Counted from the first letter of the stretch, positions 13,343 to 36,708 are shown. The stretch is 64,000 nt of DNA from Candidatus Woesearchaeota archaeon (GCA_964408705.1 CAYPAI010000004.1:57-64056), one strand, 5' to 3'. Program-made: numbers and translations. Notes: generated by a model from the sequence alone, not told the origin.

Positions 13343-16300
13343 ATGGAAAAAGGGATAAAAGAGGTAAGAAAAGGGACGTATAATAATTTAGTTTTAGGTT
13401 TAATGTTAGCATGTTTAGTTATTTTTTCTGGTTGTGTAGGAGATTATTCTCCAAGGAATGCAGGTGCTATTAGTTTAGAAGAGAGTTATAAAAATGAGTT
13501 TAACTCAAGAGGATGTGCTGATTCAACCGATGTTAAGTTTCTTGAAGTTAATGCTCGTTCGAATAAATATTCTGCTTCTTGTCATGATATGAGAACCATA
13601 TTGAGAAGTAAAACCTTATCTCAAAAACTTATGGATCCTAATGTTGCTAAGTATTGGGCAATAACTGATAAAGAAGTAAATTCTGCTGATTTTAAAAATT
13701 CCTTAAAAGCTTTTTCGGCGTTAGAGGACAAGCTTAGTATTACTACTATTTATTCTCATCTTGATAAAAATTTGAAGAAAGATGGAACTTATTATAATAG
13801 TGTTTTGACTGATGTAAAGATACCTACTTGTTTAGATGGTAATGTTCTTATGATGGAGTATACTGATACTGGAGATAAAGAATGTTTTACAAGTGAAGAA
13901 ATTGAAAAACAACTTTTACTTGGTTCTAAAACTGTACTTGGTAAATTTGGAAGAGATGTTTTAAAAATAAAGCCAGATTATTCACCTGGAATTTCAAGTA
14001 AAGGGCCAAGTAAATCATGGGTTCAACGTAATTGTCCTTGGTGTGATGATCCACAGTCTAAATTGAAAGAACTTTCATTTATGGATAAGATGAATGACCC
14101 TAGGGTTTTGAAAACTTTTGCTACACCTTTTGGTTCAGGAGTTATGCTTTGGGAAACTGAGCAAGGTGGTTATGAGGTCGCATTTACAGATTCAAAAGGA
14201 CATGGTAAAGATGGAAGTCCACAACCTCAATTAGTATATGAAGGTTTATCAGGTTTACAAATTTTTGGAAATAAAGTTGTAAATTATGATCTTGGAAAAC
14301 TTAGTGAAGATAGAGTAAGATGTAAAACATATGAAAAAGTTGATTATAATTCAGGATGGGCTGGTGAAGCTTTCCCTAAAGATCTTCTTGGAAAATTAAG
14401 TAAGATTGGTCATGATTGTATAGTTCAACCTCCTAAAAGGAATGGAGAAGTTATTGGGGGATCCGCTTCAATAGGTATTGTAGATATATTGGAATGTGAT
14501 CAAATGAATATAAATGGAGAATGGATAGGTGGAGATTGTAATGGAGGAAATGGTCCTACAGGTTGTCAAGTAGGTAGTCCTAATTATTGTTCAAATACTG
14601 GAGATCCTTGTTGTGGAGGAGATCATTGTCTTAAGGATGAAGATTATATTTGTGAAATATCTGATGATACTACTGAGTTGTGTAATTTAGTTGATGTTTG
14701 TGGTGCTGCAGCAGAAGTTAGTGGATGGTACAAAACTTGTACTGGTGCTAGTCCAGCTTGTCCTTCAGCAGGATGGCAGCAATTTGAAGGTATTTTAGCT
14801 GATGACGATTGTGGTCCTTATTCAGTTTGTGGTTATGAAGATCCTGAAACTTCTTTAGATCCATCATGTAAAGTACCTTTACAACAATGTGGTCAAGGTT
14901 CTGGTTCATTATTCTTTCAGGATGGAGAAGATGGTCAAATTTTAGGTTATGATCTTCGAGGAGATCTTAAATCAACAACAGATGCAAAAACAGGAACTAA
15001 AGAGTACCATGATACTAGAAGTAGAACTAATACTTGTGAAGATATAAGTTTAACAGGTGTAAAACCTGATGGAACTACTAAATATATTCAAATGGGACAG
15101 TGTGCTTGTTCTAATGATCATCCAGATGATTGGAAAATAATGAGTGGATGGTATCATGATGCAGTAGCTGCTGGAAGTGGTGAAAGCGAAAGTATATTTG
15201 CATATGATCAAATGGGTTGTGAAAATGATGCTATTGCAGAAGATTGTGGAGAGAATGCAATTCCTTTATGTTATTTGACAACATATACAGGTATGGATGA
15301 TCCATGGTCTTCAGGTTTTGAAGACAAAGGAATAGCAGTTGATAATATGGAATTACCATGGACATTTGTAGACCAATATGGTAATGGCCAAACTTATACT
15401 ATAACTGAAGATGATGTTCAAAATTCACATACTGGTTATTGTGAATGTCCTGAGGGAGTTGTACCTACTACTGCTTGTGATGGACAATTATTAGATGGTG
15501 ATGGAAATGTGATTGATAGTTGTTCAATGTCAGAAGATACTACACCTTATTGGACAATTGATTTTGGTAATAAACATGGTGCACAGAATCATTTATGGGA
15601 AATAGGTCCTTGTCAAGATGGAGAAGGAGTATTTTGTGTAGGTGATGGTTATTGTGAGACTGCATGTGATAGCGATGAAAACTGTCCTGTATTTGAAGGA
15701 GAGAGTCTTGGAATGTATGAATCTTATTTCAATTCACCAGATGATTGTGATCAACATTATTTATTGAATTTTGAATTAAGTACTATGGCTGAACCACATT
15801 CATTAGATGCACTTGGTGTGTGGTGGGGCGGAGAAAATGAATGTAGAGATACTGATTGGGATTGGGATTGGTTATTCTTTGATGAAATATTTAACGCTTA
15901 CGCTTGGGAAAGGCCAGATAATGGATATGCATTTAATGCTGAAACTAGTCAAGAAAGTCAATGTGCTGAAGGGTTCAAGAAGATTTATTGGACAAACTAT
16001 AAAGATACTTATCTTTTTAATGGTGTTGGAGAATTATTCACAGATTCAGATGTTGCGCATATAAGTAATTTTGGTGATACTGAGTGGGCCTCATTCCAGG
16101 AGTCAGATATATATGATGTTCGTTATACAGATTATTATACTAATGATGGTTTAGAACTAACAATAAATGATCAGTTGGCTGTTCCTAATATGTTTGGTTT
16201 TAACACTTACTATAAATTAAAGGCATTTATAGCTGGTGAAGAAGACGATTGGGGTGGAGAACATTGTGGAGGCTGGGGATCAGATAGTCAATCTGATCAA

Positions 16301-16840
16301 GCACATTATACAGTTATGGCTACAGGTTTAAATTTCAAATCATTAAACCCAGAAGGTACATTTGATCTTGGTGAAGCAGGATTCGAAAGTTGTAATGACG
16401 GAGAAGCTGGTGCTTGCAATCTTAAGGCATTAGGTGTCGGTATGACTTGGTGGGGAGATGAAAATAATCTTTGGTATACTATTGGTATAGAAGAAGGATC
16501 TGGAGAGTGGGAACCTTCTGCATGGGAAGATTGTGGAAACTTGTATAGCGCAGATGAAAACAATGAGATAGTTGGACCATGGGATGAAACCTGTCATGTA
16601 GATATACCTGCTGCATTTAATTGGGATGGGGAGTTTGATTATACTTCAGCTAATTTAGATGATATGTCAAGTTGGAGTCCGACTACAGGTGAAGACATTA
16701 CAGTTTATGACTATGATTCTGCAGACTCAGAATGGTTAAATGATATGAATCTAGTTAATAGATGGTATTGTTGTACAAATAACGCAGATAGAAATCGTGA
16801 AAGCGTAGTTTTAGGATGTACAACTGAAATATCTGCTTAA
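13343..16840 (+). CDS. Giant secreted Cys-rich lipoprotein (1165 aa).
   Basis: The leader ...LMLACLVIFSGCVGD carries a lipobox (FSGC). There are Cys-rich modules and Trp-rich acidic segments (WWGGENECRDTDWDWDW, MTWWGDENNLWY). Confidence 0.8.
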   Translation: MEKGIKEVRKGTYNNLVLGLMLACLVIFSGCVGDYSPRNAGAISLEESYKNEFNSRGCADSTDVKFLEVNARSNKYSASCHDMRTILRSKTLSQKLMDPNVAKYWAITDKEVNSADFKNSLKAFSALEDKLSITTIYSHLDKNLKKDGTYYNSVLTDVKIPTCLDGNVLMMEYTDTGDKECFTSEEIEKQLLLGSKTVLGKFGRDVLKIKPDYSPGISSKGPSKSWVQRNCPWCDDPQSKLKELSFMDKMNDPRVLKTFATPFGSGVMLWETEQGGYEVAFTDSKGHGKDGSPQPQLVYEGLSGLQIFGNKVVNYDLGKLSEDRVRCKTYEKVDYNSGWAGEAFPKDLLGKLSKIGHDCIVQPPKRNGEVIGGSASIGIVDILECDQMNINGEWIGGDCNGGNGPTGCQVGSPNYCSNTGDPCCGGDHCLKDEDYICEISDDTTELCNLVDVCGAAAEVSGWYKTCTGASPACPSAGWQQFEGILADDDCGPYSVCGYEDPETSLDPSCKVPLQQCGQGSGSLFFQDGEDGQILGYDLRGDLKSTTDAKTGTKEYHDTRSRTNTCEDISLTGVKPDGTTKYIQMGQCACSNDHPDDWKIMSGWYHDAVAAGSGESESIFAYDQMGCENDAIAEDCGENAIPLCYLTTYTGMDDPWSSGFEDKGIAVDNMELPWTFVDQYGNGQTYTITEDDVQNSHTGYCECPEGVVPTTACDGQLLDGDGNVIDSCSMSEDTTPYWTIDFGNKHGAQNHLWEIGPCQDGEGVFCVGDGYCETACDSDENCPVFEGESLGMYESYFNSPDDCDQHYLLNFELSTMAEPHSLDALGVWWGGENECRDTDWDWDWLFFDEIFNAYAWERPDNGYAFNAETSQESQCAEGFKKIYWTNYKDTYLFNGVGELFTDSDVAHISNFGDTEWASFQESDIYDVRYTDYYTNDGLELTINDQLAVPNMFGFNTYYKLKAFIAGEEDDWGGEHCGGWGSDSQSDQAHYTVMATGLNFKSLNPEGTFDLGEAGFESCNDGEAGACNLKALGVGMTWWGDENNLWYTIGIEEGSGEWEPSAWEDCGNLYSADENNEIVGPWDETCHVDIPAAFNWDGEFDYTSANLDDMSSWSPTTGEDITVYDYDSADSEWLNDMNLVNRWYCCTNNADRNRESVVLGCTTEISA

Positions 16841-16927: not shown

Positions 16928-17497
16928 ATGTATAAATATATTCGTGAGTTGTGGAAGAGTCCTTCAAGAGAAGTATTGAGAAGTAGATTAATAGCTTGGA
17001 GAAGAGATCCTGCATTAGTTAGAGTGGAGAAACCAACTAGATTAGATAGGGCTAGAACATTAGGGTATAAAGCAAAACAAGGATACGTTATAGTTAGGAT
17101 TAAGATTTCTAGAGGGAAAAGGCAAAGAGAATTAATTAAGAAAGGTAGAAGGTCTAAACATAGGAGAAGGAAGAAGATAGTCGGAAAGAGTTACCAGTGG
17201 ATTGCTGAAGAAAGAGTTTCCAGAAAGTATAAGAATATGGAAGTTTTAAATTCTTATGAAGTTGCTAAAGATGGAAAGAGCAAATGGTACGAAGTTATAT
17301 TAATAGATAGAGATCATCCAACTATAAAGAGGGATCAAAGAACTAAATGGGTGTTAAATAAATCAAATGTTGGTAGGGCCTTTAGAGGTTTAACTTCGTC
17401 AGGTAAAAAAAGTAGAGGATTAAGAAATAAAGGAAAGGGTGCTGAGAAAATAAGACCTAGTTTAAATTCTAAAGCTAACAAAAGAAGAGCAAAATAA
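16928..17497 (+). CDS. rpl15e: Large-subunit ribosomal protein L15e.
   Basis: [54 protein letters not shown] is the characteristic L15e N-terminus. The C-terminus is basic. Confidence 0.9.
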
Positions 17498-17773
17498 TTA
17501 TATTCTATACACTTTAAATTTTACATTTTTTGATTTTAATTTTTTTAATTTATTTCTGTTAATCAAAAACATAATGGCTCCTGCAATACTTAAGGCCATT
17601 AATAATGTTGTTCCAAATACTCCTGCAAGAATTAATAATCCTCCAATGAGTGGTGCAAATAATGACATTATTAAACTATTTTTAAAACTAAATCCCTTAT
17701 CATATAAAATAAAGAATGCTATGAAGGCTATAAGTATAGAAGAATATAATATTGTCTTGTAAATCATATTCAA
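17498..17773 (-). CDS. Small two-TM membrane protein.
   Basis: 91-aa hydrophobic ORF. Confidence 0.35.
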   Translation of the reverse strand: MNMIYKTILYSSILIAFIAFFILYDKGFSFKNSLIMSLFAPLIGGLLILAGVFGTTLLMALSIAGAIMFLINRNKLKKLKSKNVKFKVYRI

Positions 17774-17787
17774 AACAATTATAAACT

Positions 17788-18855
17788 ATGCATATAAGGC
17801 TTTCTGTTATGTTATTAAAGGAACAAATAGAAGAGTTTAGAGATTATCTTAAGAAGTCTGAAAATCCATTATTTTTATTTGATGATGATCCGGATGGGAC
17901 TTCATCATACTTACTTCTTAGAAAGTATATAAATAAAGGTAAGGGAGTTATGGTAAAGGCTAAACCAGTAGTTGGAGAAGAATATTTAAGAAAAGTTCAA
18001 GAAAATTCTCCTGATTTGATTGTTATTTTAGATATGCCTATGGTTGACCAGGAATTTATAGATAAAGTTAATGTCCCTATTATATGGTTAGACCATCATC
18101 AACCTGTTAAAAGGAAAGGAGTACATTACTATAACCCTAGAATGAATCCTCCAGAAGATAATAATCCTACAACTTATTATTCTTATAAGATTTCTGAAGA
18201 ACAAAATACTTGGATTGCTGCAGTAGGTTGTTTTGCAGATTGGTATTATCCAGATTTTGTAAATAAGATTTATTCATTGTACCCTGGATTAATTCCAAAG
18301 AATGAAAGTAAGAAACCAGAAGAAGTATTATTTGGTTCAAGATTGGGCGATCTAATTAGGACAATCTCTTTTTTGTTAAAAGGAAGTATTACTGAAGTTA
18401 ATAATTCTATAAATGTATTATCTAGGATAGAAAGTCCTTTTGAAATCCTGGATCAAACTACTTCGAGAGGTAAATATCTTTATAAAAAAGTAGATGGCTT
18501 GAGAAAAGAATATAATCTAGTTTTAGATAAGGCTCTCAAAACTAAAGAAAGAGATGATATTTTGGTTGTAGAGCATCCAAAAACTAGACACTCTTTTGTT
18601 AGTGAGTTATCTACTGAATTAAGTTATAGGACAAGAAAAACTTTGATTGTTACAAGAGAAGACAAAGATAGAATGAAAATGAGTATTAGAAGTACTGATA
18701 CACATCTTCCTAAACTGTTAAATGAGGCTTTAGTCGGGCTTGATGGTTATGGTGGAGGACATGAGCTTGCATGTGGTGCAAATGTTAAATTAGATCATTT
18801 TCCAGAATTTCTAGAAAGATTTAAAAATTTAGTAAAGAGTAAATCTTCTAGGTGA
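17788..18855 (+). CDS. DHH/DHHA1-family phosphoesterase (NrnA-like nanoRNase/pAp phosphatase or RecJ-like).
   Basis: DHH-domain motifs DDDPDG and LDHHQ are present. A DHHA1 motif GGGHELACGA lies near the C-terminus. Confidence 0.75.
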   Translation: MHIRLSVMLLKEQIEEFRDYLKKSENPLFLFDDDPDGTSSYLLLRKYINKGKGVMVKAKPVVGEEYLRKVQENSPDLIVILDMPMVDQEFIDKVNVPIIWLDHHQPVKRKGVHYYNPRMNPPEDNNPTTYYSYKISEEQNTWIAAVGCFADWYYPDFVNKIYSLYPGLIPKNESKKPEEVLFGSRLGDLIRTISFLLKGSITEVNNSINVLSRIESPFEILDQTTSRGKYLYKKVDGLRKEYNLVLDKALKTKERDDILVVEHPKTRHSFVSELSTELSYRTRKTLIVTREDKDRMKMSIRSTDTHLPKLLNEALVGLDGYGGGHELACGANVKLDHFPEFLERFKNLVKSKSSR

Positions 18856-18883
18856 TACTATTAAAAAAATTATATTATTATTT

Positions 18884-20776
18884 TTGTTGTTTATACCTCT
18901 TGCATCTGCAGAGGTAGATAATTATTATGGATATTCTGAACTTATAATAGATTATGAGTTTAATACTGAAGTTGAACTTGATGGTGGTAATGATCTCGAT
19001 TATTTAAATGCTAATTTAACATTAATCCCGTTAGAGAGTTATAGGCAAGAAGTTATTAGTTTTTATCCAAATTCTAATCCAGTTTCTGAGATAGTACATG
19101 GTGATACTTTTTTAAATTATATTTGGAATGAGTATAATCCAATATTTCAGATAGGAATTGAATCTAGTATAAAATCTAAAAGTTCATTCCATAAGTTAGA
19201 TCATATTTCTTTTCCAATAATAGATTTAGATGAGAATTATCAAATGTATCTTCAAGAAGGTGAAAAGATAGATATTACTGATGATATAGTGAATAAAGCT
19301 GCAGAGATAGTTGCAGGAGAAGATGATTTGTATACTGCCGTATTCAAACTTGCAGATTGGACGAGAAATAATATTGAATATGACTTAAATTCATTAACCG
19401 CTAAAGCTGCACTAAAATCCTCATGGGTTTTAGAGAATAGGCAAGGAGTTTGCGATGAGATGACTTCATTATTTATATCTTTTTGTAGGTCTGTAGGAAT
19501 TCCTGCAAGATTTATATCTGGTACAGCTTATACTAATGTAGATTATAGTTTTGGTAATCATGGGTGGGCAGAAGTTTATTTTCCAGATCATGGATGGGTA
19601 CCATATGATGTTACTTTTGGAGAATATTCTTGGTTAAACCCTGCACATATTAGTCTTGCTAAATCTCTAGATAGTGGAGATTCTGCAATAAAATATAGTT
19701 GGATGGGAAATAATATTGATATAGAAACTACTCCTATAATTATTAATGCAGAGGTAGTTTCTGAAGGAGATTATCTTGAACCAATTTTTGATATTGATGT
19801 CGATTTTTTAGTCGATCAAGTTGCCCCTGGAAGTTATGTCCCTGTAAGAGTTTCAATAGACAATAATTTTGATAAGTATGTTACTAATACTATATTTATA
19901 ACTAAATCGCCCTCTCCCTTGGCAGTAAAGGATAATCCTAGGCCAATATTAATGAAGCCTAACCAAGAAAAGTCTTCATTTTGGACGATAAAAGTTCCAA
20001 GTGATGTTGATCCCGGGTATGTTTATACTTCTACATTTGAGGTAAAAGATATTTTTGGATCAATTTCTTCGGATACTTTAGAATTTTCTCAACAATATGA
20101 ATTGTTTACTCAAGATGAAGCTTTGTCTTTAATTGAAGGCTTAGAAGAAGAAGAGGATATGACCTATTCTGAAAATATATTTTTAGAATGTTCTTCTTCA
20201 AAAGATTATTATTATTTTTTTGAAAAAGTAAAAATAAATTGTGAGGTGCAAAATATTGGAAATACTTTAATCAGTGAACTAAGAGTTTGTTTATATGAGG
20301 AATGTGAAGATATTGATTTAAATATAGCACAAAAGAAGAATATTTTCTTTAATACCGATCCTTCTATTGGGAATTTAGCAGTCTCTGCTAAGAATTCTGA
20401 TCTTGAAGTGTATTCCTTTATAAATTTCCTAATTTTGGATTCTCCAGACTTAGAGGTATCAAATTTTGAGTTTAAAGATATTGTAAGTTATAATGATAAA
20501 CTTGATATTTCCTTTGTGTTAAGTTCTAAGGCAATAATCAATAATTTAGAAATAGTTGTTGGTGGATTGGAACCAATTAATATTGAAAAAACAAAGGAAT
20601 CAATACCTGTTTCTATAAATACAGATGCCAAATATTTTATAGATAGAGTTGATTTAGTTATAAATTATGAAGATGAATATGGTAATAAATTTTCAATTGA
20701 AGAATTTAAAAGTATAAATATAAATGATATTCCTTGGTATGCTAGATTTTTTAATTTGTTTAGAAGGATTTTTTAA
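18884..20776 (+). CDS. Secreted transglutaminase-like (Cys-His-Asp) domain protein.
   Basis: The transglutaminase-like core reads QGVCDEMTSLFISFCRSVGIPARFISG...GNHGWAEVYFPDHGWVPYDVT. An in-frame signal-peptide-like segment (KKIILLFLLFIPLASA) sits upstream of the TTG start and has no ATG. Confidence 0.75.
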   Translation: MLFIPLASAEVDNYYGYSELIIDYEFNTEVELDGGNDLDYLNANLTLIPLESYRQEVISFYPNSNPVSEIVHGDTFLNYIWNEYNPIFQIGIESSIKSKSSFHKLDHISFPIIDLDENYQMYLQEGEKIDITDDIVNKAAEIVAGEDDLYTAVFKLADWTRNNIEYDLNSLTAKAALKSSWVLENRQGVCDEMTSLFISFCRSVGIPARFISGTAYTNVDYSFGNHGWAEVYFPDHGWVPYDVTFGEYSWLNPAHISLAKSLDSGDSAIKYSWMGNNIDIETTPIIINAEVVSEGDYLEPIFDIDVDFLVDQVAPGSYVPVRVSIDNNFDKYVTNTIFITKSPSPLAVKDNPRPILMKPNQEKSSFWTIKVPSDVDPGYVYTSTFEVKDIFGSISSDTLEFSQQYELFTQDEALSLIEGLEEEEDMTYSENIFLECSSSKDYYYFFEKVKINCEVQNIGNTLISELRVCLYEECEDIDLNIAQKKNIFFNTDPSIGNLAVSAKNSDLEVYSFINFLILDSPDLEVSNFEFKDIVSYNDKLDISFVLSSKAIINNLEIVVGGLEPINIEKTKESIPVSINTDAKYFIDRVDLVINYEDEYGNKFSIEEFKSININDIPWYARFFNLFRRIF

Positions 20777-24224: not shown

Positions 24225-24782
24225 TTGATTGTTATGAAAAAGTTTAGTTTTATTTTATGTTTATTTTTGGTAAGTCTTTTATTTATTTCAAGTTGCTACG
24301 ATAGCAATGTGTTCAGGAAGAATGATGTAGCAGAATTTTGTGTAGGTGAAGGTGAATCAATAGCTATAACTCACCCAGATTATGCCGAGGATTGTTGTGA
24401 AGGTCTTGTACAAATTTCTAATAAAGATCCAGACTTTTCGGGGGCAGGTATATGTACTGGAAATTGTGGAGATGGGATATGTAATGAAGATTCAGAATCA
24501 AGTTATAATTGTGAAATAGATTGTGAATTGAATGATTCTAGAAATACTTCAGATGATGTTTTTAATGATTTTGATCAAGATGCTTCAGAGGAAGAAGTAG
24601 AATCAAATACTGAAGGCCCCAGGTGGGAAGATGTTTATGAAGATACTCAGTGTAATGGGGATGATGCAATTGCCATAATCTTTGAATTGGTTCAACAATC
24701 TGCTACTAATGAGCAGATAATGGAAGCTATGTGTGATATTAATTGTGAAGAATTGAACCCTCAAGACTATATTTGTTCTTAA
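24225..24782 (+). CDS. Secreted Cys-rich acidic lipoprotein carrying the shared 66-aa EFCVGEGES...EIDCEL module.
   Basis: The signal peptide has a lipobox (LLFISSC). Nucleotides 24331..24526 are 100% identical to 39282..39477. Confidence 0.7.
   Translation: MIVMKKFSFILCLFLVSLLFISSCYDSNVFRKNDVAEFCVGEGESIAITHPDYAEDCCEGLVQISNKDPDFSGAGICTGNCGDGICNEDSESSYNCEIDCELNDSRNTSDDVFNDFDQDASEEEVESNTEGPRWEDVYEDTQCNGDDAIAIIFELVQQSATNEQIMEAMCDINCEELNPQDYICS
24331..24526 (+). repeat. Copy 1 of a 196-bp segment that is 100% identical between two different lipoprotein genes.
   Basis: cagaattttgtgtaggtgaaggtgaatcaatagctataactcacccagattatgccgaggattgttgtgaagg... ...gtgaaatagattgtga is identical to 39282..39477. 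Confidence 0.85.
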
Positions 24783-24800
24783 TAAGAAGAGATAATATTT

Positions 24801-25493
24801 TTAATTTAAATTTTTAACTTTTCCAAAAAATTTTACTTCATCTTTTGATACAATATAACATTCAAAATTTTTAACACCTTTTTCTAAAAAAGGACTCAAA
24901 TGTTTATTTTTTGTTATATCAGAACCTTTTGTTAAATCATGAAAACTAGGGGTTACAATTAATTTATTTTTTTTATATTTTCCAACCAAGAAACACTTAA
25001 ATTTTTCATTTGGTTTCTCTTTAAAACTTATTGCAGGATGTTCGTGTCCAATTATTATAATCTTGTTTAATTTTTTTGGTATTTTGTGTCCATGAACTAT
25101 TGTAACATTTTCATCATTCCAAGAATCTATAATTTTTATATTTCTTTTTTTTGCAATTGGACCTAAAACAATATCATGATTACCTCTTATTAGAACTATT
25201 TCTTCAACTTTATTAGACAAGAAGTCAAATAAGTTTAAGGAATCTGTCCATTCCTGATTTAAGATAGATCCAAACTCATGTTTAATATCTCCATTAATTA
25301 TTACTCTTTTTACTTTTATTTTTTTAAATATTTTCTCTAGTTTATCTAATATGTTTTTTAGTTGAAATTTTGGAAGCAAAACACCTCTTTGTTGCAAATG
25401 TTCTTCATATCCAAGTTGTAAGTCCCCAATTATTAAATTATCCTTATAAACTAAGCCTAAATTAACTATCTTTATTTCTGAGGCAATTTTCAT
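24801..25493 (-). CDS. Calcineurin-like metallophosphoesterase (MPE), Lhr-associated.
   Basis: Metallophosphoesterase motifs GDIKHEFG, IRGNHD and GHEHP are present. The start lies 2 nt after the lhr stop. Confidence 0.8.
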   Translation of the reverse strand: MKIASEIKIVNLGLVYKDNLIIGDLQLGYEEHLQQRGVLLPKFQLKNILDKLEKIFKKIKVKRVIINGDIKHEFGSILNQEWTDSLNLFDFLSNKVEEIVLIRGNHDIVLGPIAKKRNIKIIDSWNDENVTIVHGHKIPKKLNKIIIIGHEHPAISFKEKPNEKFKCFLVGKYKKNKLIVTPSFHDLTKGSDITKNKHLSPFLEKGVKNFECYIVSKDEVKFFGKVKNLN

Positions 25494-25495
25494 AT

Positions 25496-28105
25496 TTAGT
25501 GTAAATCCTCTATCTTTCTATTTTTACCAATTTTGGCTAATACCATTTTATGCATTCTATTTATGAAATCTACCCTGTCTTCCATCCTCATAATATCTAG
25601 ATGAGACTGAGTTACAAGATTAAATGCAAATGGGCTTGGAATTGTTGTTTTTGTTTCTTTTAGTTTTATTTTTTTATTTTTTAAGTCTTCTAAAACTTTT
25701 TTTGCATTTTCAATATCCATCAAATCTTCTAATACTTCCCTTCTTGATTCTTTTAATATTGAAAATTCTTTATCAATTTGTCTTACAGCTTTTAAGAGTA
25801 TCATAGAACTAACTTGTTGTCTTCCTACTCTTTTTTTCTTTCCCTTGTAATTTCGAAGTATCATGAGTGCTCTTCCTGCACAATGTCTAAACCTTCTCTT
25901 TAGTATTTCAGTTTTTTCTATTGCTTCTTCCATTGTATGTTTTAATAGTTCAGGTTCTAAATAGGAGAAGGCTCTTAATGCTTGAATCGGTTTTTTACTA
26001 GATATATAAAAACCATTATCACTTATCCCTATCTCTAGGTCTCTTTTGTGAATTTTTCCCAAAATATATGCTACTGCCCTACTTAGAACGTCGTTAACCC
26101 TTCTACCAAATAAAGTATGAAATATTACATATTTTTTACTGTCTTCATATCCTTCAGAATAATATTCAATTATTATTTCCTTGTTAGTTGGTATTAATGA
26201 ATAAAGATATTGTTCTTTGAAATATCTGTATATAGAATATGCAGCATTATCGTCTACATATAAGTGATTGTTAATAAACTCTAAAATATTTTTTCTTGAT
26301 TCTTTATTTTCAAATCTTTCTAACATTAGGCCCCTAAACTTTTGTATACTAGTTGCTAGATCGAAGCTTAAGGGTAACATTTCAGATATCCAGGAAGGGA
26401 TTGTTGGTGATTTTCCTGTTGCAGATTTTACTTGGGCAACCATTCCTCTACTATGTTGAAATTCATATGTATCTCCTCCGATCACAAATCTGTCTTTTTT
26501 CTTTAACTTTTCAAGAAATCCTTCATCTATAGTTCCTATCCTTTGATCACCAATTTTTACAGTTACACCAGTTTGGTCAGGAATTGTCCCAATGTTTGTA
26601 AGATTAATGATCCTACTCATTGTACCTTTCTTTCCGATTTCATTTGTTTCTGAGTCATACCATATTTTTGCAAAAATATATCTTTCTTCTAAACTTACAT
26701 AATTTCCTGCTAAATAATCTATTATTTCCATAAAATCTTTTTTATCTAAGTTTCTATAACAATATGATTTTGTTATGGTTTCGTATAATTTTTCTAGATC
26801 CCAAATTTTTATACAAGCCATACCATGGATAACTTGTGCTAGAACATCTAAGGCGTTATTTGGTATGTGTATTCTATCTATTTTTTTTTCTAATGCATTT
26901 TTTAATAAAACACTACATTCTATTAAATCATCTCTATCCAAAACTATAATTTTTCCCTTTACAGTTTCATGTAGGCTATGTCCTGCTCTACCTACTCTTT
27001 GTAAAAATCTTGCTACAGATTTAGGAGACCCAAGGCAGATTACCAAATCTATAGATCCTATATCTATTCCTAATTCTAAACTTGTTGAACAAACTACTGT
27101 TTTTAGTTTTCCTTCTTTTAATTTATTTTCTATGTTTATTCTATGTTCTTTACTTAAACTTCCATGATGTGCCCCAATGTTTTCAGTATATTTAGATGGG
27201 TACATTTTTTTTAGATGGTGAACTATTCTTTCTGTTCCTGCTCTTGTATTTGTAAAAATTAAAGTTGTTTTATGATTATCTATTAATTTATCTACTGTTT
27301 TGTAAAGTGCCAAATGTGACCTTTCATAATCTACATCTATCAAATCAGGTAAGGGTGACATTACTTGTAAATCGAATTTTTTAGAAAATTCAATATTAGC
27401 TATTTTACATTTTCTTTTGGTTCCTACTAAGTATTCTGCAATTTCTTCTAGTGGTTCTATTGTTGCACTTAATCCAATTCTGCTTAGGTTTGGACTGATA
27501 CTGTTTAGTCTTTCTAGGAGTAAACTTAGATGTACTCCTCTTTTGTTTTCTGCCAATGCATGGATTTCATCTATTATTGTCCAATTTGTTCCTCTTAGAA
27601 GTTTGTAGAATTTTGGACTGGTTAGCATCAATCCTAAACTTTCAGGGGTAGTAATTACTATGTGAGGTGGATTTTTCAACATTTTTTGTTTTTGGTATGC
27701 TGTTGTGTCTCCCGTTCTTACTGCAACTCTTATGTTTATTTCTTGATTTCTTTTTTTTGCTAGTTCTTGTATTTCTTTTAGTGGTTCTTCTAAATTTACA
27801 AAAATATCGTTGTTCAATGCTTTTAATGGACTTATGTAAACCGCATAAACTCTGTCATCTAGTTTATTTTTAAGTGATAAAGTAACTAATTCGTTAAGGA
27901 TTGATAAGAATGCTGTTAATGTTTTTGTTCCGCCAGTTGGAGCAGATACTAAAATGTTATTTTTTTCATGAATTTCTTTAACTCCATAGAGTTGTGGCTC
28001 TGAAAAACTAGGATATTTGTTGAAAAACCATTCTTTTACTAAAGGGTGTAGGATAGCTTCAACTTCTTTTTTTGTATAAGGTTTTTTTAGTTTTTTGAGT
28101 GACAT
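25496..28105 (-). CDS. lhr: Lhr-type (Lhr-core) ATP-dependent DNA helicase, superfamily 2.
   Basis: Walker A is SAPTGGTKT. The DEIH box is IIDEIHALAENKRGVHLSLLLERL. Motifs SAT, QRVGRAGH and a C-terminal Lhr WH/domain-4 region are present. 869 aa. Confidence 0.85.
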   Translation of the reverse strand: MSLKKLKKPYTKKEVEAILHPLVKEWFFNKYPSFSEPQLYGVKEIHEKNNILVSAPTGGTKTLTAFLSILNELVTLSLKNKLDDRVYAVYISPLKALNNDIFVNLEEPLKEIQELAKKRNQEINIRVAVRTGDTTAYQKQKMLKNPPHIVITTPESLGLMLTSPKFYKLLRGTNWTIIDEIHALAENKRGVHLSLLLERLNSISPNLSRIGLSATIEPLEEIAEYLVGTKRKCKIANIEFSKKFDLQVMSPLPDLIDVDYERSHLALYKTVDKLIDNHKTTLIFTNTRAGTERIVHHLKKMYPSKYTENIGAHHGSLSKEHRINIENKLKEGKLKTVVCSTSLELGIDIGSIDLVICLGSPKSVARFLQRVGRAGHSLHETVKGKIIVLDRDDLIECSVLLKNALEKKIDRIHIPNNALDVLAQVIHGMACIKIWDLEKLYETITKSYCYRNLDKKDFMEIIDYLAGNYVSLEERYIFAKIWYDSETNEIGKKGTMSRIINLTNIGTIPDQTGVTVKIGDQRIGTIDEGFLEKLKKKDRFVIGGDTYEFQHSRGMVAQVKSATGKSPTIPSWISEMLPLSFDLATSIQKFRGLMLERFENKESRKNILEFINNHLYVDDNAAYSIYRYFKEQYLYSLIPTNKEIIIEYYSEGYEDSKKYVIFHTLFGRRVNDVLSRAVAYILGKIHKRDLEIGISDNGFYISSKKPIQALRAFSYLEPELLKHTMEEAIEKTEILKRRFRHCAGRALMILRNYKGKKKRVGRQQVSSMILLKAVRQIDKEFSILKESRREVLEDLMDIENAKKVLEDLKNKKIKLKETKTTIPSPFAFNLVTQSHLDIMRMEDRVDFINRMHKMVLAKIGKNRKIEDLH

Positions 28106-28214
28106 TTGGACGAGAATGAGATAGAAATCTTGTTTATAAAATATATGTTTGATTTATTATTTTATTTTTTAAATAATGGAAAGTTATTTAAATTGTTTTT
28201 ATTATAATTTAAGT

Positions 28215-28661
28215 ATGAAAAGGGGCAATCTAGTTTTAACTTTATTTTTAATTAGTATTTTATTTATTTCTGGATGTGGTCCTGAAATGGCTCCAGGTAC
28301 AGGAAAAGATTGGGGAAATTCTGATAAAGAACAGTTTATCCCTCCTGCTCCTAAATCTTCTAGTTCTTCTTGTTATCAAGATGAAGATTGTGAAATTTAT
28401 GAGTTTTGTGATATGGATCCTGGTGCAAAGAGTGGTGAGTGTAAATATTTAACTCATTGTTATAATGATAAGCATTGTTCAAAAGATTTTTATTGTTCTA
28501 TTCCAAAAGGTGCAAAGAGTGGATTTTGTATGGAATTATACTCTCAAATCCCTAATAAAATAATGGATGATTTGGGTGGAAATTCTCCTGAACAATATTA
28601 TCCTTGTATAACTTATGGTGGATTAGACTGTGGACAGGATACTTGGGGACCAATTCTTTAG
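28215..28661 (+). CDS. Small Cys-rich lipoprotein with an internal duplicated DPGAKSGEC / PKGAKSGFC motif.
   Basis: The probable start is the internal Met, giving MKRGNLVLTLFLISILFISGCG (family leader plus lipobox). The ORF track starts 13 codons earlier, at 28176. Confidence 0.6.
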   Translation: MKRGNLVLTLFLISILFISGCGPEMAPGTGKDWGNSDKEQFIPPAPKSSSSSCYQDEDCEIYEFCDMDPGAKSGECKYLTHCYNDKHCSKDFYCSIPKGAKSGFCMELYSQIPNKIMDDLGGNSPEQYYPCITYGGLDCGQDTWGPIL

Positions 28662-28662
28662 A

Positions 28663-29145
28663 TTAAGCCTTAAAACTCAAAGCTGATTCTCTTTTTTCTT
28701 CTAAAATTTTTCCAGAAATAGCATGAATCTTGACATGAATTATATTCATTGTCTTTGTTATATAGGTGATATTCCATAAAGGTGCTTCCAAATTTTGTAA
28801 AATTATTATTTCTTTGTTTACTTCTTCACCTTTGTATTTTTCTTCAATAAGGTTAGATATTATCCTTTTAGCTTCATTTATACCAATCTCAAGATCTTCA
28901 ATTTTTAATTCTTTTATTTCTCTCTTCTCTTTTCTGAAAACTTCTGAAGTTTCAACATTAATTTTTTTATCTTTAACTGTGAAACTTGCCATGTTATCTT
29001 CATCAGGACAATAAAAGTCTACTTGCCAATTATCTGAAGAATTAAAACAACTTGATAAGTAAGAGTTTAAATGTTTCTCCTTAAATTCTTTAAATTTAGA
29101 ACTGTTTTTTATGTCCCTTAAAATACTTTTTAATTTAATTAACAT
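28663..29145 (-). CDS. Hypothetical protein.
   Basis: 160-aa ORF whose stop abuts thrS. Confidence 0.4.
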   Translation of the reverse strand: MLIKLKSILRDIKNSSKFKEFKEKHLNSYLSSCFNSSDNWQVDFYCPDEDNMASFTVKDKKINVETSEVFRKEKREIKELKIEDLEIGINEAKRIISNLIEEKYKGEEVNKEIIILQNLEAPLWNITYITKTMNIIHVKIHAISGKILEEKRESALSFKA

Positions 29146-30848
29146 CTGTGTTCAATGTCACTTGCTAAGTCCTTAATAAATTTATCTGTAGGGACTCCAA
29201 ATTTTAGCTTTCCGGCCAAAGATCTAATTGCTAGTTTTTTAGCTTTCACTTCCTTATCGCCAATAGTTACTGCGTAAGGTATTTTTTGAATTATAGATTC
29301 CCTTACCTTTTTACCTATTGATTGGTTTTTATTATCGAAGTGAACTCTAATATTATTATCTTCTAGTTTTTCAACTACTTCTTGAGCAAATTTTTTATGT
29401 GAGTCATTAACTGTTAGTATGGATACTTGAGTTGGGCTTAGCCATAAAGGAAGTTTTCCAGCAGTGTGTTCTAGTAACACTCCAATAAATCTTTCTAAGC
29501 TTCCAAGAATTGCTCTGTGGATTACTATCGGAGTTTCTTTTGTTCCTTCTTTAGACTCATAATTTAATTTAAAATTTAATGGCATTTGGAAGTCTAATTG
29601 GATAGTTGCCAGTTGTTGGCTTCTTCCTAAAGAATCTTTAATATCAAAATCTATCTTAGGTCCATAAAAAGCACCTTCTTCTTTTTTAATTTCAAATTTC
29701 AATTTCTTCTTTTTTAGAATTGATTTTAATGATTTTTCTGCCTTGTCCCATAGTTGTTTATCTCCCATCGCTTGTTTTGGCATTGTGCTTAAAGAGATTG
29801 AGTAGGTGAATTTGAAAATATCTTTGTATATATGATCTATAAACTCTAGAACATTGCCTATTTCTTTTTCAAGTTGTTCGGGAGTTACAAAGATATGTGC
29901 ATCATCTTGTGAGAATTTTCTTACTCTTGTTAAACCACCAAGGACACCTTTTAATTCATTTCTGTGTAAGACTGAAAAGTCTGCTAATCTTAAAGGTAAG
30001 TCCCTATATGATCTTATTTTTGATTTGTATATTAGCATGTGTCCAGGACAGTTCATTGGTTTTATTGCAAAATCTCTTTTATCAACTTTTAATGTAAACA
30101 TGTCTTCTTGATATTTTTCCCAATGTCCGCTTGTTTTCCAAAGCCTATTGTCATACAGTTGTGGGCTTATCACTTCTTCATACCCTCTTTTAGAGTATTC
30201 TTTTCTTATCATACTGATTAATTTATTATAGACAAAAGCTCCTTTTGGGTAAAAAAATGGTGAACCTGGACTGTGTTTATTAAACATAAATAAATCTAGT
30301 TCTGTACCTAATTTCCTATGGTCTCTCTTTTTTGCTTCTTCTAGCATAGTTAGATGTTCTTCCAATTTGTTTTTAGTATCAAAAGCTGCAACATATATCC
30401 TTTGAAGCATCGGGTTTTTTTCTGAGCCTTTCCAATATGCTCCTGCTGTTTTTAAAATTTTAAAATGTTTTAGCTCCCCTGTAGATTTTGCATGTCCACC
30501 TTTACATAAATCTATAAATTTTTCTTGTCCATAAAAACTAACAGTTTTTCCAGGTAAATCTTTTAGTAGATCTAATTTATACTTTTGTCCTTTTAACATA
30601 TTTTTTGCTTTTAATTTTGATACCGTTGTTTTTTCAATTTTAATATTTTTATTTACAATTTTTCTCATATTTTTTTCAATATTTTTTAAATCTGAAGGGC
30701 TAAATCCTTCTTTTTTATCAAAATCATAGTAGAATCCATTTTCAATTACTGGACCTATCCCCAATTTTGTTTTTGGAAATAATTCTAATACTGCTTGAGC
30801 TAGAATATGTGCACCAGTATGTCTTAAATTGTGTAATTTGTCTTTCAT
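29139..30848 (-). CDS. thrS: Threonyl-tRNA synthetase, short form with the N2 editing-like region, catalytic core and anticodon-binding domain.
   Basis: The N-terminus NLRHTGAHILAQAV carries the HxxxH editing motif. The class II catalytic core includes HRAILGSLERFIGVL. Confidence 0.9.
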   Translation of the reverse strand: MKDKLHNLRHTGAHILAQAVLELFPKTKLGIGPVIENGFYYDFDKKEGFSPSDLKNIEKNMRKIVNKNIKIEKTTVSKLKAKNMLKGQKYKLDLLKDLPGKTVSFYGQEKFIDLCKGGHAKSTGELKHFKILKTAGAYWKGSEKNPMLQRIYVAAFDTKNKLEEHLTMLEEAKKRDHRKLGTELDLFMFNKHSPGSPFFYPKGAFVYNKLISMIRKEYSKRGYEEVISPQLYDNRLWKTSGHWEKYQEDMFTLKVDKRDFAIKPMNCPGHMLIYKSKIRSYRDLPLRLADFSVLHRNELKGVLGGLTRVRKFSQDDAHIFVTPEQLEKEIGNVLEFIDHIYKDIFKFTYSISLSTMPKQAMGDKQLWDKAEKSLKSILKKKKLKFEIKKEEGAFYGPKIDFDIKDSLGRSQQLATIQLDFQMPLNFKLNYESKEGTKETPIVIHRAILGSLERFIGVLLEHTAGKLPLWLSPTQVSILTVNDSHKKFAQEVVEKLEDNNIRVHFDNKNQSIGKKVRESIIQKIPYAVTIGDKEVKAKKLAIRSLAGKLKFGVPTDKFIKDLASDIEHRC

Positions 30849-30928
30849 GCTTATATTTTTCTAAATTACTATATAAATTTAACTAAGATTACAGTAAGAT
30901 TTAAATATAAATCTTATTTAAGGATTGT

Positions 30929-32554
30929 ATGAAAAGAGGTTTATTGATAATAGGTTTTTTATTGATTTTATTACCATTTGTTAATGCAGATTATGACGGG
31001 GCATTTAGTATGGATAAATCTTCAGTACAATTAGGAGATGAATTTACTATAATTGGAGATAATATTCAGTTTGATGGTCAAAAATATAATGGTAATGCGA
31101 TGATAATATTTGAGGGGTATAACGAATCTTTCACATTATTAACTGAGATTTCTGAAGGGGAATTTTCATATGTTTCTTCATTTTGTCAGTTACAAGATTG
31201 TGTTTTAGATAAAACTAGTGGAGATTTTAAGATTACAATTCAGTTGTTTAATCTTCAGTTGGAAGCATTACATGAATTTACCCATATCTTAACAATTAAT
31301 GTAGTTGATAAATTAGATATTGCTTTAAATTTGAAAGAATCTCAACTTATTCCAGGAGAGGACCTAGAATTAGAAGGTTCTGTGTTTAGGAAAGTAGATT
31401 CTGCTCCAGTTACTAATATGGATCTTAAGATTAATATTGATGATTATGTTGTAGATTTATTGTTAAATTCTGAAAGTTTTGAATATGATACTGCATTGTC
31501 TAATAAGATAGTTTCAAATTATCATGATGTCTTAGTTACTGCAGAAGATATTTATGGAAATTGGGGAAATAATACAATAAGTTTTTATGTTACCCCTGTC
31601 CCTACATGGATTGAATCTAGGACAAGTAATGGTACTGAATTCTCACTGGGAGAATCTTTAGAGTTTACTATTCAAGTTTATGATCAGGCTAATGCTCCAA
31701 TTTCTAAAGAAGTTAGTTTTAAAATTAAAAATTCAAATGGAAAGACCGTTCTAAAGGATTCTGCAATAAGTGGCCAGGATATCACCTATGATCTTGGAGA
31801 GTATCCTCTGCCAGGGGAGTGGATTATTGAAGCAGATTCAGAGGATTTAGAATCTGAAATGTTTTTTTATATTGAAGAAGTTAAGGATTTGGAGGTAACT
31901 ATAGATGAGTATTCGATTATTGTAAAGAATGTAGGTAACGTTTATTATCAAGATAATCTAGTTTTAGTTTCTCAAGAAGGTGATCAAAGAAATACCATTT
32001 CTAGAAGGACTAATCTTGAGCCTGGAGAGGAAATGGTTATTGATATGTATACTATGTTTGATGTAGGAAGAAAGAATTTGATGATATCAAATACAAATGA
32101 AGAGTTTGATGTTCTTGTTGAAGATCCGAGATCTTTTTTTACAAAAGTTGGAGATACTTTTTCTGAGTTTACAGGACAAGCAATAATGAGTTCAGGTAGT
32201 GGAACTTCTAATGCTCCTACTTTTGTTTTAATTATCTTTTTTGTAGTTGGATTGCTTGTTTTTAGTTATAGATTAAGGAAAGGGAGGAAAGGCCTAGTTC
32301 CGAGTAATAAAAGATTTAAATTTTTAAAGTTTAAAAAAAAGAAGTCTAGAGATGATGTTGATGATCTTAAGGATAGAATTTTGAAAGATATTGAAGATTC
32401 CCAAAAACATCAAAAAGAAGAAGTTAAGAAGGAATCTGTAGTGTCTCCTATGCCTTCTATTTTTGATAAGGATTTTAGTAAAGTGAGTGAGCCTAAATCT
32501 AAGTCTAATCCTTCTAGAGTTGATTTTGATAAACCTTATGGGAGCAAAGAATGA
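30929..32554 (+). CDS. Surface protein with a cleavable signal peptide, a C-terminal TM anchor and a basic cytoplasmic tail.
   Basis: The signal peptide is MKRGLLIIGFLLILLPFVNA|DYDG. The C-terminal anchor is PTFVLIIFFVVGLLVFSYRLRKGRKG, followed by a K/D-rich tail. Confidence 0.65.
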   Translation: MKRGLLIIGFLLILLPFVNADYDGAFSMDKSSVQLGDEFTIIGDNIQFDGQKYNGNAMIIFEGYNESFTLLTEISEGEFSYVSSFCQLQDCVLDKTSGDFKITIQLFNLQLEALHEFTHILTINVVDKLDIALNLKESQLIPGEDLELEGSVFRKVDSAPVTNMDLKINIDDYVVDLLLNSESFEYDTALSNKIVSNYHDVLVTAEDIYGNWGNNTISFYVTPVPTWIESRTSNGTEFSLGESLEFTIQVYDQANAPISKEVSFKIKNSNGKTVLKDSAISGQDITYDLGEYPLPGEWIIEADSEDLESEMFFYIEEVKDLEVTIDEYSIIVKNVGNVYYQDNLVLVSQEGDQRNTISRRTNLEPGEEMVIDMYTMFDVGRKNLMISNTNEEFDVLVEDPRSFFTKVGDTFSEFTGQAIMSSGSGTSNAPTFVLIIFFVVGLLVFSYRLRKGRKGLVPSNKRFKFLKFKKKKSRDDVDDLKDRILKDIEDSQKHQKEEVKKESVVSPMPSIFDKDFSKVSEPKSKSNPSRVDFDKPYGSKE

Positions 32555-32763
32555 ATTTAAGTTGTTTACTAAATTTTTATCAACTGTTATCTATCGATGG
32601 GGTTAAAGAAGGTGGTAATGAAAATCTGAATATTCTTAATAAAGACAGGTTTATTAATAAAATTTATAGGAATAAATTATTCTGGTTTTTTGCTGTTGTT
32701 TTTATCTTTTTATTTTTTAGATCTATATCTTAAGTTACGGGATCAAATTAATTATCTTTAACT

Positions 32764-33282
32764 TTATTGTAACTCATATAGTTTTTTTAATTCTTCTAAT
32801 TCTTGTTTAGATACTATGTCATCTTTATTAAGATCTGCATCTGATCCTATTCGTATTAAAAACTGATCTAGATACTGGTTATAATGTTTTAGATGATTTT
32901 CCTTTTTAAGTTCTGGCCATGATTCTTGAAAGCCGATATAATTTTTGTAAATATCTTCAATTAGTGGGATATAAGATGTTTTAGTCCATTTGCCTCCGCT
33001 GAATGGAACAATAATATCATACTCTTCATAATTACTTGGTCCGATTGTTTTTTCTGCATAATCTTTTTTATCTTGAATAATATACCATTTTTTTAACATG
33101 GAATCATCATATCTCGGTTTAAAATCTTTTTCTAAGTTTTTAGTTGAATTTGTTATAATATTTTTTGCCTTATCAATATAGGTTTCTAAATTGTTAGGAT
33201 TACAATCTTTTAATGAACATCCAGTTAAAGCTATTAATGAAAAGATTGTAGTGATGCCTTGTTTATATAATTGTTTTATCAT
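32764..33282 (-). CDS. Putative lipoprotein.
   Basis: N-terminus is ...IFSLIALTGCSLKDC (lipobox). 172 aa. Confidence 0.45.
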   Translation of the reverse strand: MIKQLYKQGITTIFSLIALTGCSLKDCNPNNLETYIDKAKNIITNSTKNLEKDFKPRYDDSMLKKWYIIQDKKDYAEKTIGPSNYEEYDIIVPFSGGKWTKTSYIPLIEDIYKNYIGFQESWPELKKENHLKHYNQYLDQFLIRIGSDADLNKDDIVSKQELEELKKLYELQ

Positions 33283-33815
33283 TCTATTTCAGGATAAAGT
33301 GTTTTAGTAATGTCTATGATCATTTTTGTTGCTTCATATTTGTCGTTATTTTTTTCTTGTTTATACTCTTTTAATTTTATTTCAAGTAAGTTTCTAAGTT
33401 TTCTCATTTTTAGTCTTGGAGACATACTTTCGAATTCAGTTCTAATCAAATCTTCAACCTTTTCTTCAGAATATCCAGCAAGACTCAGACTTTTTGAAGT
33501 CATTTTTCTATATTCTTCAGAACTACATTTTTCTAGGACGGTTTTATTTATCTCTTCCTTGTAGTTACCTTGAATCTCTGAAGCATCTTTATGTTCCTTT
33601 TTTATGGGTTCTTTATATATCTCATTTTCTGAGATGTTGTATTCAAATTTTTTCTCTATACCGTTACTTTCAAATTTTGGAAATTCTGTTGATTTAGACG
33701 TATTTGAAGGAATATATTTTTCTTTATGCTCAGTGCTATCTTTGTATCTTTCTTTTAAAAATTTAGGAACTTCTTCTTCCATTAAATCTTTAAGATATGT
33801 TTTTTTAATACCCAT
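33279..33815 (-). CDS. Hypothetical K/E-rich protein.
   Basis: 178-aa ORF with a 4-nt overlap onto the downstream lipoprotein gene. Confidence 0.4.
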   Translation of the reverse strand: MGIKKTYLKDLMEEEVPKFLKERYKDSTEHKEKYIPSNTSKSTEFPKFESNGIEKKFEYNISENEIYKEPIKKEHKDASEIQGNYKEEINKTVLEKCSSEEYRKMTSKSLSLAGYSEEKVEDLIRTEFESMSPRLKMRKLRNLLEIKLKEYKQEKNNDKYEATKMIIDITKTLYPEIE

Positions 33816-33890
33816 TTTACTGACTATCAGATCATATTTTAGTTTATAAGTCTTTTGTTTATCACTACTATATAATAGTTAATTATTTAT

Positions 33891-34343
33891 TTAATTTTTG
33901 TAGAATATTGTATCTTTATCTTCTTCAATTTTTTTGAAATTTTTTAGCTTATCTTCAATTATTTTAAATTTTTTTGCCCTCTTAAATACAGATATTGCTA
34001 TTTTATTTCTTGATACTCTTTTTATTTCGTTTATTCCCTTTATCGGATTTTTGAAATTATGAATTGCACTGATTGAAATTACTGAATCGAATGAGTTATC
34101 TTTAAAAGGTAATTTTTCTCCATCTCCTTGAATTACATTTGAAGAAGATTTCTTTAACATTTCATTACTTAAGTCTATTCCTGTATAATTTTTAAATAAT
34201 TTTGAATAAAAAGCAGTACCACATCCAACATCTAATACTTTTTCATTATTTAACTCTAACAATTTTATGATTATCTTTACCTTTTTTAGTTGTTCTTCTC
34301 TGTGTAGTTCATTATAACTTTTGGCTATGATTTTGTAATCCAT
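33891..34343 (-). CDS. Class I SAM-dependent methyltransferase (small, UbiE/type-11 like).
   Basis: Motif I is VLDVGCGTAFYS. Post-I acidic residue is present, followed by motif II/III-like segments. Confidence 0.7.
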   Translation of the reverse strand: MDYKIIAKSYNELHREEQLKKVKIIIKLLELNNEKVLDVGCGTAFYSKLFKNYTGIDLSNEMLKKSSSNVIQGDGEKLPFKDNSFDSVISISAIHNFKNPIKGINEIKRVSRNKIAISVFKRAKKFKIIEDKLKNFKKIEEDKDTIFYKN

Positions 34344-34396
34344 AATTTCTGGTTATTGGTAAAATATTTAAATGCCTTGATGTTTTAATTTTTTAA

Positions 34397-34467
34397 GCGC
34401 GAATAGTTTAGTGGTAGAATTTAACGTTGCCAACGTTGAGACCCGGGTTCGAACCCCGGTTCGCGCA
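34397..34467 (+). tRNA. tRNA-Gly (anticodon GCC).
   Basis: Acceptor stem is GCGCGAA/TTCGCGC with an A discriminator. Anticodon stem-loop is TAACG-TTGCCAA-CGTTG. The T-arm reads GGTTCGAACCC. Confidence 0.8.
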
Positions 34468-34521
34468 TTTATTTTATTTTTTGAGTTAATTTTTTATATT
34501 CTGACTTTTAATTAATTAAAA

Positions 34522-34920: not shown

Positions 34921-34969
34921 TTTATAACAAAAACATTTAAATATATAGTATTAATCAATTGGAATTTAT

Positions 34970-35041: not shown

Positions 35042-35065
35042 TTACTAATTTTTAACTAATTTATT

Positions 35066-36703: not shown

Positions 36704-36708
36704 AAATT

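Follow-up and report, generated by a model that had tools for sequence, protein, structure and literature searches.

One cysteine-rich domain sequence in two otherwise different lipobox genes of an uncultured marine DPANN archaeon: best read as recent non-allelic gene conversion or duplication of a domain-sized segment

Ectopic gene conversion among paralogous surface-protein genes is known from several prokaryotes, including the pilE/pilS and opa genes of Neisseria, the vlsE cassettes of Borrelia and the variable lipoprotein families of Mycoplasma. In DPANN archaea, diversity-generating retroelements (DGRs) are common, and the cell-surface proteins of these organisms, presumed to serve in attachment to the host, have hardly been annotated at all. 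We have analysed a 64-kb stretch of DNA (the window) in which two predicted surface lipoprotein genes, here called A and B, carry the same 196-nt sequence. As in the Neisseria, Borrelia and Mycoplasma systems, a short and sharp tract of identity or near-identity is found between otherwise different surface-protein genes, these genes are located in variable regions of the genome, and lipoprotein genes possess a common promoter and signal-peptide cassette. The best reading of this arrangement is recent non-allelic gene conversion, or a domain-sized duplication, between surface-protein genes. Events of this type, whether non-allelic conversion or the shuffling of domains among surface-protein genes, are already known; the lineage in which one is seen here is little studied.

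The window bears archaeal marks, namely L15e, PTH2 and pilin-like KRGISPLIATVLLIG N-termini, and the nearest named relatives of its ThrRS, at 52–62% identity, belong to Candidatus Woesearchaeota and Nanoarchaeia. Together, these features point to a marine DPANN archaeon (Woesearchaeota/Nanoarchaeia-like). The archaeal class-III (pilin-like) signal peptides (KRGISPLIATVLLIG) occur in the genes at 42691-43158 and about 48947-50176; the DNA encoding the two N-termini is 84% identical, and the second gene also encodes a beta-helix domain.

The shared tract and the two genes that carry it

Nucleotides 24331-24526 and 39282-39477, both on the plus strand, match exactly over 196 nt, and the match extends by zero nucleotides past either edge. 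The preliminary description of this DNA had claimed this perfect identity, a common 66-aa peptide encoded by both copies and immediate divergence of the flanking coding sequence. Direct comparison within the window bears out all of this: the translations agree, and the flanks of the two copies are only 30–42% identical, which is the random level at 29.5% GC. The pair constitutes the longest exact repeat of the window, the runner-up being 52 nt long and confined to a tandem array, and the maximum exact repeat obtained by chance in 20 Markov-1 simulations of the window is 16–20 nt. Neither tblastn nor a search with the family profile detected a third copy of the module in the 64-kb window. The possibility, raised in the preliminary description, that the identity is part of a bigger duplicated block was also pursued, and no such block was found around the tract.

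The reading frame is kept in both copies, codon position 2 corresponding to codon position 2: the tract runs from position 2 of codon 33 to position 2 of codon 98 in gene A, and from position 2 of codon 62 to position 2 of codon 127 in gene B. Within the tract, 8 nt precede the first Cys codon of the 8-Cys domain described below and 2 nt follow the last, indicating that the copied unit is exactly one domain. The last two of the 66 amino acids, Glu-Leu, are completed beyond the tract by differing codons, GAA TTG in gene A (24525-24530, plus strand) and GAG TTA in gene B (39476-39481, plus strand), with the tract ending after the second nucleotide of the Glu codon. The family shows no conservation of Glu-Leu at this place, and the chance of two identical residues there is ~0.004. 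The two synonymous differences just beyond the tract are a hint of older homology between the genes.

The lipobox signal peptide ...LLFISSC opens both proteins (N-termini MKKFSFILCLFLVSLLFISSC in A and MKLMKRGILTLFLFSLLFISSC in B, the motif being read straight from the sequence), and both display the Sec-type layout of a positive N-terminal region, a hydrophobic region and a lipobox ending in Cys. A similar lipobox start is present in at least five further genes of the window. The bacterial-style lipobox [LVI][ASTVI][GAS]C has also been predicted in DPANN archaea, in which lipobox proteins are reported to be prevalent and whose genomes reportedly encode AliA, a candidate lipidation enzyme (PMC12462473). 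A and B are predicted surface lipoproteins, and each looks like a complete expressed gene. The window also encodes very large lipobox proteins of 824, 1165 and 1279 aa (10280-12754, 13343-16840 and 43200-47039), with 52–69 cysteines each. Two separate large ORFs share a 65-nt segment that is 91% identical (43467-43531 and 47537-47601).

Gene A (24234-24782, plus strand) encodes a 182-aa lipobox protein composed of the signal peptide, a 12-aa linker, the 8-Cys domain and an acidic orphan C-terminus; no homolog of its C-terminal half was found outside its own population. The gene coordinates given previously are correct, ATG at 24234 (182 aa) being a likelier start for gene A than TTG at 24225. 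Gene B (39098-40291, plus strand) encodes a 397-aa mosaic lipobox protein, in which the signal-peptide cassette is followed by a B-specific segment made up of a small Cys mini-motif (CGVCTKEGKVCEDGTVVGREGPDCEFAECP) and a linker (39161-39280, plus strand), by the 8-Cys domain, and by a widespread ~270-aa C-terminal domain without annotation (about residues 130-397; 39485-40288, plus strand). The family of this domain is large, with 968 matches in marine archaea and bacteria, is sometimes duplicated within one protein, and has no Pfam model. The AF2 model of the domain has a pLDDT >94, and its PDB matches are weak, zincin-like and non-significant (E >= 0.035). Residues D187, D253, E257, E258, H261, E278, R292-G294, W322/Y323 and C330/C334 are near-invariant in the family. 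The closest relatives of the domain are found in P0012 and P0016 (64%), which are without the module, and in L001 (78%), which has a different N-terminal region. At positions 880-960 of L001, a Tara Oceans contig, this other N-terminal region and a (PE)n linker precede the B-type domain, with an in-frame TAA between; the TAA could mark a pseudogene, result from an error of sequencing, or separate two genes whose border coincides with that of the domains.

The 5' end of gene B forms a second mosaic segment. A promoter-like AT box, the 5' leader and the signal peptide down to the lipobox Cys (39067-39164, plus strand) match the adjacent upstream gene C (37567-37664) at 95 of 98 positions, with complete divergence thereafter. 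Weaker copies of this 5' cassette lie near 10240, 28214 and 43169, so that several lipobox genes share it at lower identity. The earlier designation of A and B as members of a diverged gene family does not hold, since only the signal peptide and the module relate the two to each other: the C-terminus of A is an orphan, and that of B belongs to a separate family.

The 8-Cys domain family and the genomic setting

The module is one unit of an extracellular domain of ~62 aa with eight cysteines, without annotation, that occurs in one to five tandem copies per protein. Among 1.84 billion representative proteins, a profile of the module matched 231 clusters at E <= 1e-3, nearly all of which were module-only matches. 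From 125 proteins, 186 instances of the domain were extracted; 130 of the 153 near-full instances have exactly eight cysteines, and a lipobox-like N-terminus is present in 44 of the 125 proteins. The cysteines are spaced C-x17-CC-x18-C-x3-C-x4-C-x9-C-x3-C, with EGE, GL, CT..CG.G.C and E..NC..DC motifs, and the family consensus reads C.xEGE.IPVI…CCxGLxLIxPK…GICTAKCGNGVCDxxTESxYNCPxDC. Residues C3, C21, C22, C41, C45, C50, E55, N59, C60, D63 and C64 of the module are invariant. The modules of A and B fit profile positions 2-64 with E ~ 1e-21. Scanning of A, B and ten further module-bearing proteins, multi-copy ones included, yielded no Pfam model for the module. Its many partners elsewhere are extracellular modules and include DUF333, SLH, Ig-like and Kazal domains.

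An AF2 model of the module, built from a 60-sequence alignment (pLDDT 86.6), predicts a small disulfide-rich knot with four disulfides. The best Foldseek match, mini-IGFBP-5 (1h59_B), covers 46 residues with an rmsd of 2.7, E = 0.02 and a TM of 0.42, and is non-significant. The module resembles the IGFBP N-terminal domain and knottin-like folds in its compactness, its few secondary-structure elements and its four predicted disulfides, but it has no sequence relationship to them, and membership in either group is not claimed.

Scans of metagenome and genome contigs with the module alignment gave distant relatives only, none of them from this population. The nearest foreign copy of the module, in P0122 from another organism, is 63% identical in amino acids and 79% in nucleotides, and has the A-like layout in which the module follows the lipobox. 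The distant bacterial contig L020 encodes the mini-motif of B (CTxE…CxDG..VGR.GP.CEFA.CP), then a module-like first half. Module-bearing versions of both layouts therefore predate the tract.

Two sister lineages (L021-L024 and L025-L026), with about 74–87% nucleotide identity to the window over aligned segments, keep the block 24797-34433 and the methyltransferase at ~42.1 kb; orthologs of A or B are absent from both. Gene A lies exactly at a synteny breakpoint, the break coinciding with the end of the gene next to it. Gene B lies in a lineage-specific island of 7.7 kb (34434-42100), which also holds two tRNA genes, a DUF285 gene, gene C and two further ORFs; in the sister lineages, the methyltransferase genes that flank this island are only about 0.5–1.1 kb apart. 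The synteny break at A and the island around B indicate that both module genes reside in lineage-specific variable regions. The DUF285 ('Mycoplasma protein of unknown function') gene of the island (35487-36425) contains seven 75-nt tandem repeats at 35733-36344, and contig L007 breaks inside these repeats. In L021, ~1.1 kb with a LAGLIDADG homing-endonuclease-like ORF stand in place of the island (590-1677), and the same contig carries an IMPDH gene with an intein (Hom_end_hint) at 17086-19671.

The two copies of the tract are direct repeats separated by ~15 kb (24527-39281). This interval encodes a metallophosphatase, the Lhr helicase, ThrRS, two tRNAs and gene C, among others, and most of it is syntenic with the sister lineages. 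Its core genes and its synteny argue that the interval is not a mobile element.

Copies of the tract in independent assemblies

Beyond the sister lineages, the contigs of A and B all come from one clonal population. A dozen contigs, up to 83 kb in length, are at least 99.95% identical to the window and represent one near-clonal population; L004, for example, is 100% identical to it over 21,185 nt. Gene A with both flanks and gene B with both flanks are colinear in 83-kb contigs from JGI and ENA, in the 64-kb NCBI contig and in several shorter contigs, and the protein clusters of A and B include members from JGI/IMG and ENA assemblies. The recurrence of both contexts in JGI, ENA and NCBI assemblies shows that neither copy is a misassembly.

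Seventeen copies of the module are invariant except for the codon at module positions 108-110, which reads either TCG (Ser) or GTA (Val). In gene A (24438-24440, plus strand) this codon is GTA in six of seven contigs (L010-L015) and TCG in the window alone; in gene B (39389-39391, plus strand) it is TCG in four of five contigs (the window, L004, L005 and L006) and GTA in L003 alone. Allele and locus are largely linked (Fisher p = 0.07, or 0.03 when the window is left out). The three long contigs display, for A and B respectively, TCG/TCG (the window), GTA/GTA (ENA scaffold_561) and GTA/TCG (JGI Ga0105016_1000370), and besides this codon the long contigs differ from the window at 0–2 positions per 20 kb. 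A SNP at 16820 is private to the window with respect to the other contigs, so the window may represent a distinct strain. One 8.2-kb contig, from a sister lineage that co-occurs with the population, is present at 100% identity in both ENA ERZ23498677 and JGI 3300007512, and both also include ~83-kb contigs of the population. These assemblies apparently derive from the same sample, yet they disagree at one place, the variable codon of gene B.

The family consensus at the variable site is I/V, and TCG accounts for 2% of Ser codons while GTA accounts for 35% of Val codons. On the basis of this consensus and of the rarity of TCG, Val in A looks ancestral and Ser in B derived, a direction read from sequence comparison. 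TCG and GTA differ at all three positions, with zero other changes in 196 nt, a pattern that is hard to reach via independent point mutations. The swap of the whole codon suggests either that several nucleotides changed in one event or that the residue is under selection. The distances from the codon to the 5' and 3' edges of the repeat, 107 nt and 86 nt, are large enough that a de Bruijn assembly with a small k could turn the two alleles into a bubble and retain a single one at both loci. Homogenisation by bubble removal is deduced from these distances. The usual natural state of the two copies is probably 193/196, and the 196/196 seen in the window would be due either to homogenisation by the assembler or to a true, very recent B-to-A conversion in this strain. 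The zero differences first reported are correct for the window, whereas other assemblies of the population usually give 193 of 196, with alleles that shift from one assembly to another.

The repeat is also the site of chimeric joins. In L007, L008 and L009, which come from three samples, the end of the interval (gene C and the 5' part of B) is joined via the module to the start of the interval (the 3' part of A, the metallophosphatase and Lhr), and the database proteins P0127 and P0128 are hybrids with the N-terminus of B, the module and the C-terminus of A. L009 is a scaffold, consisting of a contig that ends 28 nt into the module, 10 Ns, and a contig that starts in the signal-peptide repeat of gene B; it places the 5' part of A beside a B5'-module-A3' contig and is clearly a scaffolding artefact. 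The point of the switch varies, as L009 carries the allele of A, while L007 and L008 carry that of B. There are no distinguishing SNPs in the chimeric contigs. The reciprocal product, A5'-module-B3', is absent from a collection of 15 billion proteins (four sequence versions) and from the list of matches to B. With the two kinds of mis-join assumed to be equally probable, the asymmetry of three to none has p ~ 0.125, which is non-significant and makes the imbalance only suggestive. A B5'-module-A3' junction would fit a tandem duplication, an excised circle, or an assembler that leaves the repeat by the wrong exit.

Origin of the shared tract and comparison with known systems

An exact repeat that fits one domain, occurs in both of its contexts in independent assemblies and contains a flipping codon is, taken as a whole, probably explained by a very recent copying of the domain DNA through homologous non-allelic recombination, most likely the conversion of an older copy. 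The domain DNA would have passed very recently from one lipoprotein gene to the other, and the conversion tract would have overwritten an older, already homologous copy of the domain in the recipient, stopping at the domain boundaries because homology stops there. In the population, the two copies would then normally differ at one codon, with GTA in A and TCG in B. The repeat, its fit to the domain, its two contexts and the flipping codon are direct observations, whereas the older homology, the conversion mechanism and the direction of change are inferred. A difference of three adjacent nucleotides with zero elsewhere is odd for a simple point mutation, and speaks against this explanation. Recent gene conversion or domain-cassette transfer, as put forward in the preliminary description, is still the best explanation, although three of its premises needed correction.

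Conversion of a pre-existing copy is moderately preferred over a fresh insertion, by which one of the genes would have been without the domain, and without any earlier copy of it, until in-frame insertion by illegitimate or microhomology-mediated recombination. Such an origin is possible, if unlikely. Relatives of the B C-terminal domain are found with other N-terminal parts or with none, and the best full-length ones are without the module, which favours a fresh acquisition of the domain by B; gene A has no relatives at all, the tract edges fit the domain almost to the nucleotide, and B is mosaic in other respects, its 5' cassette being common with gene C. Yet the Glu-Leu beyond the tract is common to A and B with synonymous codons, a B-like mini-motif with the module exists in the distant L020 organism and an A-like layout in P0122, and a precise in-frame illegitimate insertion at both ends is rarer than conversion between homologs. 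Ongoing, frequent recombination at the module is an improbable account, according to which the three allele configurations are real haplotypes generated by repeated conversion and the B5'-module-A3' junction results from unequal crossing-over, as parts of a surface-variation system. It would accommodate the finding of three configurations among long contigs that are otherwise nearly free of SNPs, the B5'-module-A3' junction on three contigs from three samples with its reciprocal missing from the 15-billion-protein collection, the private SNP by which the window may be a distinct strain, and the fact that L007 and L008 tie TCG to the 3' flank of A, just as the window does. It is countered by the N-gap that plainly marks L009 as a scaffolding artefact, by the non-significant three-to-none count and by the lack of distinguishing SNPs in the chimeric contigs; moreover, recombination cannot explain why ENA and JGI assemblies of apparently the same sample disagree, and excision of an interval holding essential genes (ThrRS and the tRNAs) would be lethal. 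The specific proposition that the Ser/Val codon has moved both ways, and that unequal crossing-over has produced a hybrid lipoprotein together with a tandem duplication or a circle of the interval, is a little more doubtful again. If true, frequent recombination of the module would be a simple way to vary surface lipoproteins in an episymbiotic archaeon, within a near-clonal natural population.

The assembly alternative named at the outset has a true part, in that the repeat does confuse assemblers, as the chimeric contigs L007-L009 and the scaffold gap in L009 demonstrate; it fails in that neither copy is spurious, the contexts having been recovered by three pipelines. A pure misassembly, in which one copy or one gene would be nonexistent and the contig chimeric at the repeat, is very improbable. 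Typical k-mers are shorter than the repeat, typical short reads are of similar length or shorter, and chimeric contigs do form at this repeat, but the colinearity of both full contexts in JGI, ENA and NCBI contigs, along with the intact ORFs and sensible domain architecture of both A and B, stands against such an error. It is scarcely credible that the identity has been kept for a reason other than the protein, such as the repeats of a DGR, the attachment sites of a mobile element or a structured RNA. Direct repeats on either side of a 15-kb interval, the two ends of which some contigs bring together, and the frequency of DGRs in DPANN, would be in keeping with such a reason. The Pfam annotation of the window over ~14.2-50.3 kb includes no reverse transcriptase, integrase or transposase, and no match was found in viral contigs. 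A DGR was rejected, as the annotated 36 kb lack a reverse transcriptase and the differences between the repeats (T/G, C/T and G/A) are not adenine-specific. An integrated mobile element was rejected for want of an integrase in this annotated stretch and because 24797-34433, including the ThrRS and Lhr helicase genes, is core and syntenic with the sister lineages. A structured RNA was rejected on folding z-scores of +1.1 and -0.25 for the two strands and the lack of any hit in a permissive Rfam scan.

With recent copying of the domain DNA by non-allelic recombination as the preferred reading, the locus shows clearly, at a single moment, how one domain is copied from one surface-protein gene to another in a DPANN archaeon. 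Its analysis also brings out two sizeable protein families that have no Pfam model, the 8-Cys domain and the C-terminal domain of B. A caution follows for metagenome-assembled contigs, in which a 'perfect' repeat can be a 98.5% repeat with a homogenised codon. The module repeat has likewise given rise to chimeric genes in public protein databases (P0127 and P0128), at least one of them from a scaffolding artefact. Assembly may account for the final 3 nt of the identity and for several of the proteins in databases.

The systems of Neisseria, Borrelia and Mycoplasma differ from A and B, which comprise two copies only, both in apparently complete expressed genes, in a DPANN archaeon; A and B are accompanied by no silent cassette array, recombinase or guide sequence, nor by signs of programming. 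The 5' cassette of the B and C type recalls the conserved 5' ends of the Mycoplasma variable lipoprotein families. Like the template and variable repeats of DGRs, A and B present two near-identical repeats of ~100–200 nt, one of which lies in a surface-protein coding region in the DGR case; unlike them, they have no nearby reverse transcriptase, each copy forms an in-frame domain of an apparently expressed gene, and their differences show no adenine specificity. As with errors of short-read assembly at repeats, which comprise chimeric joins and the collapse of paralogous variants through bubble removal, allele assignments shift between otherwise identical assemblies, contigs leave the module for the wrong flank and one scaffold is interrupted there by a gap, but here the two-copy structure is genuine, and the suspect part is limited to the last 3 nt and the chimeric contigs. 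The shuffling of tandem Cys-rich extracellular repeats offers a further parallel, as the copied unit is one autonomous 8-Cys domain that has many partners elsewhere; in this case the domain has no Pfam model, and the event is seen at ~100% nucleotide identity instead of being deduced from proteins that have already diverged.
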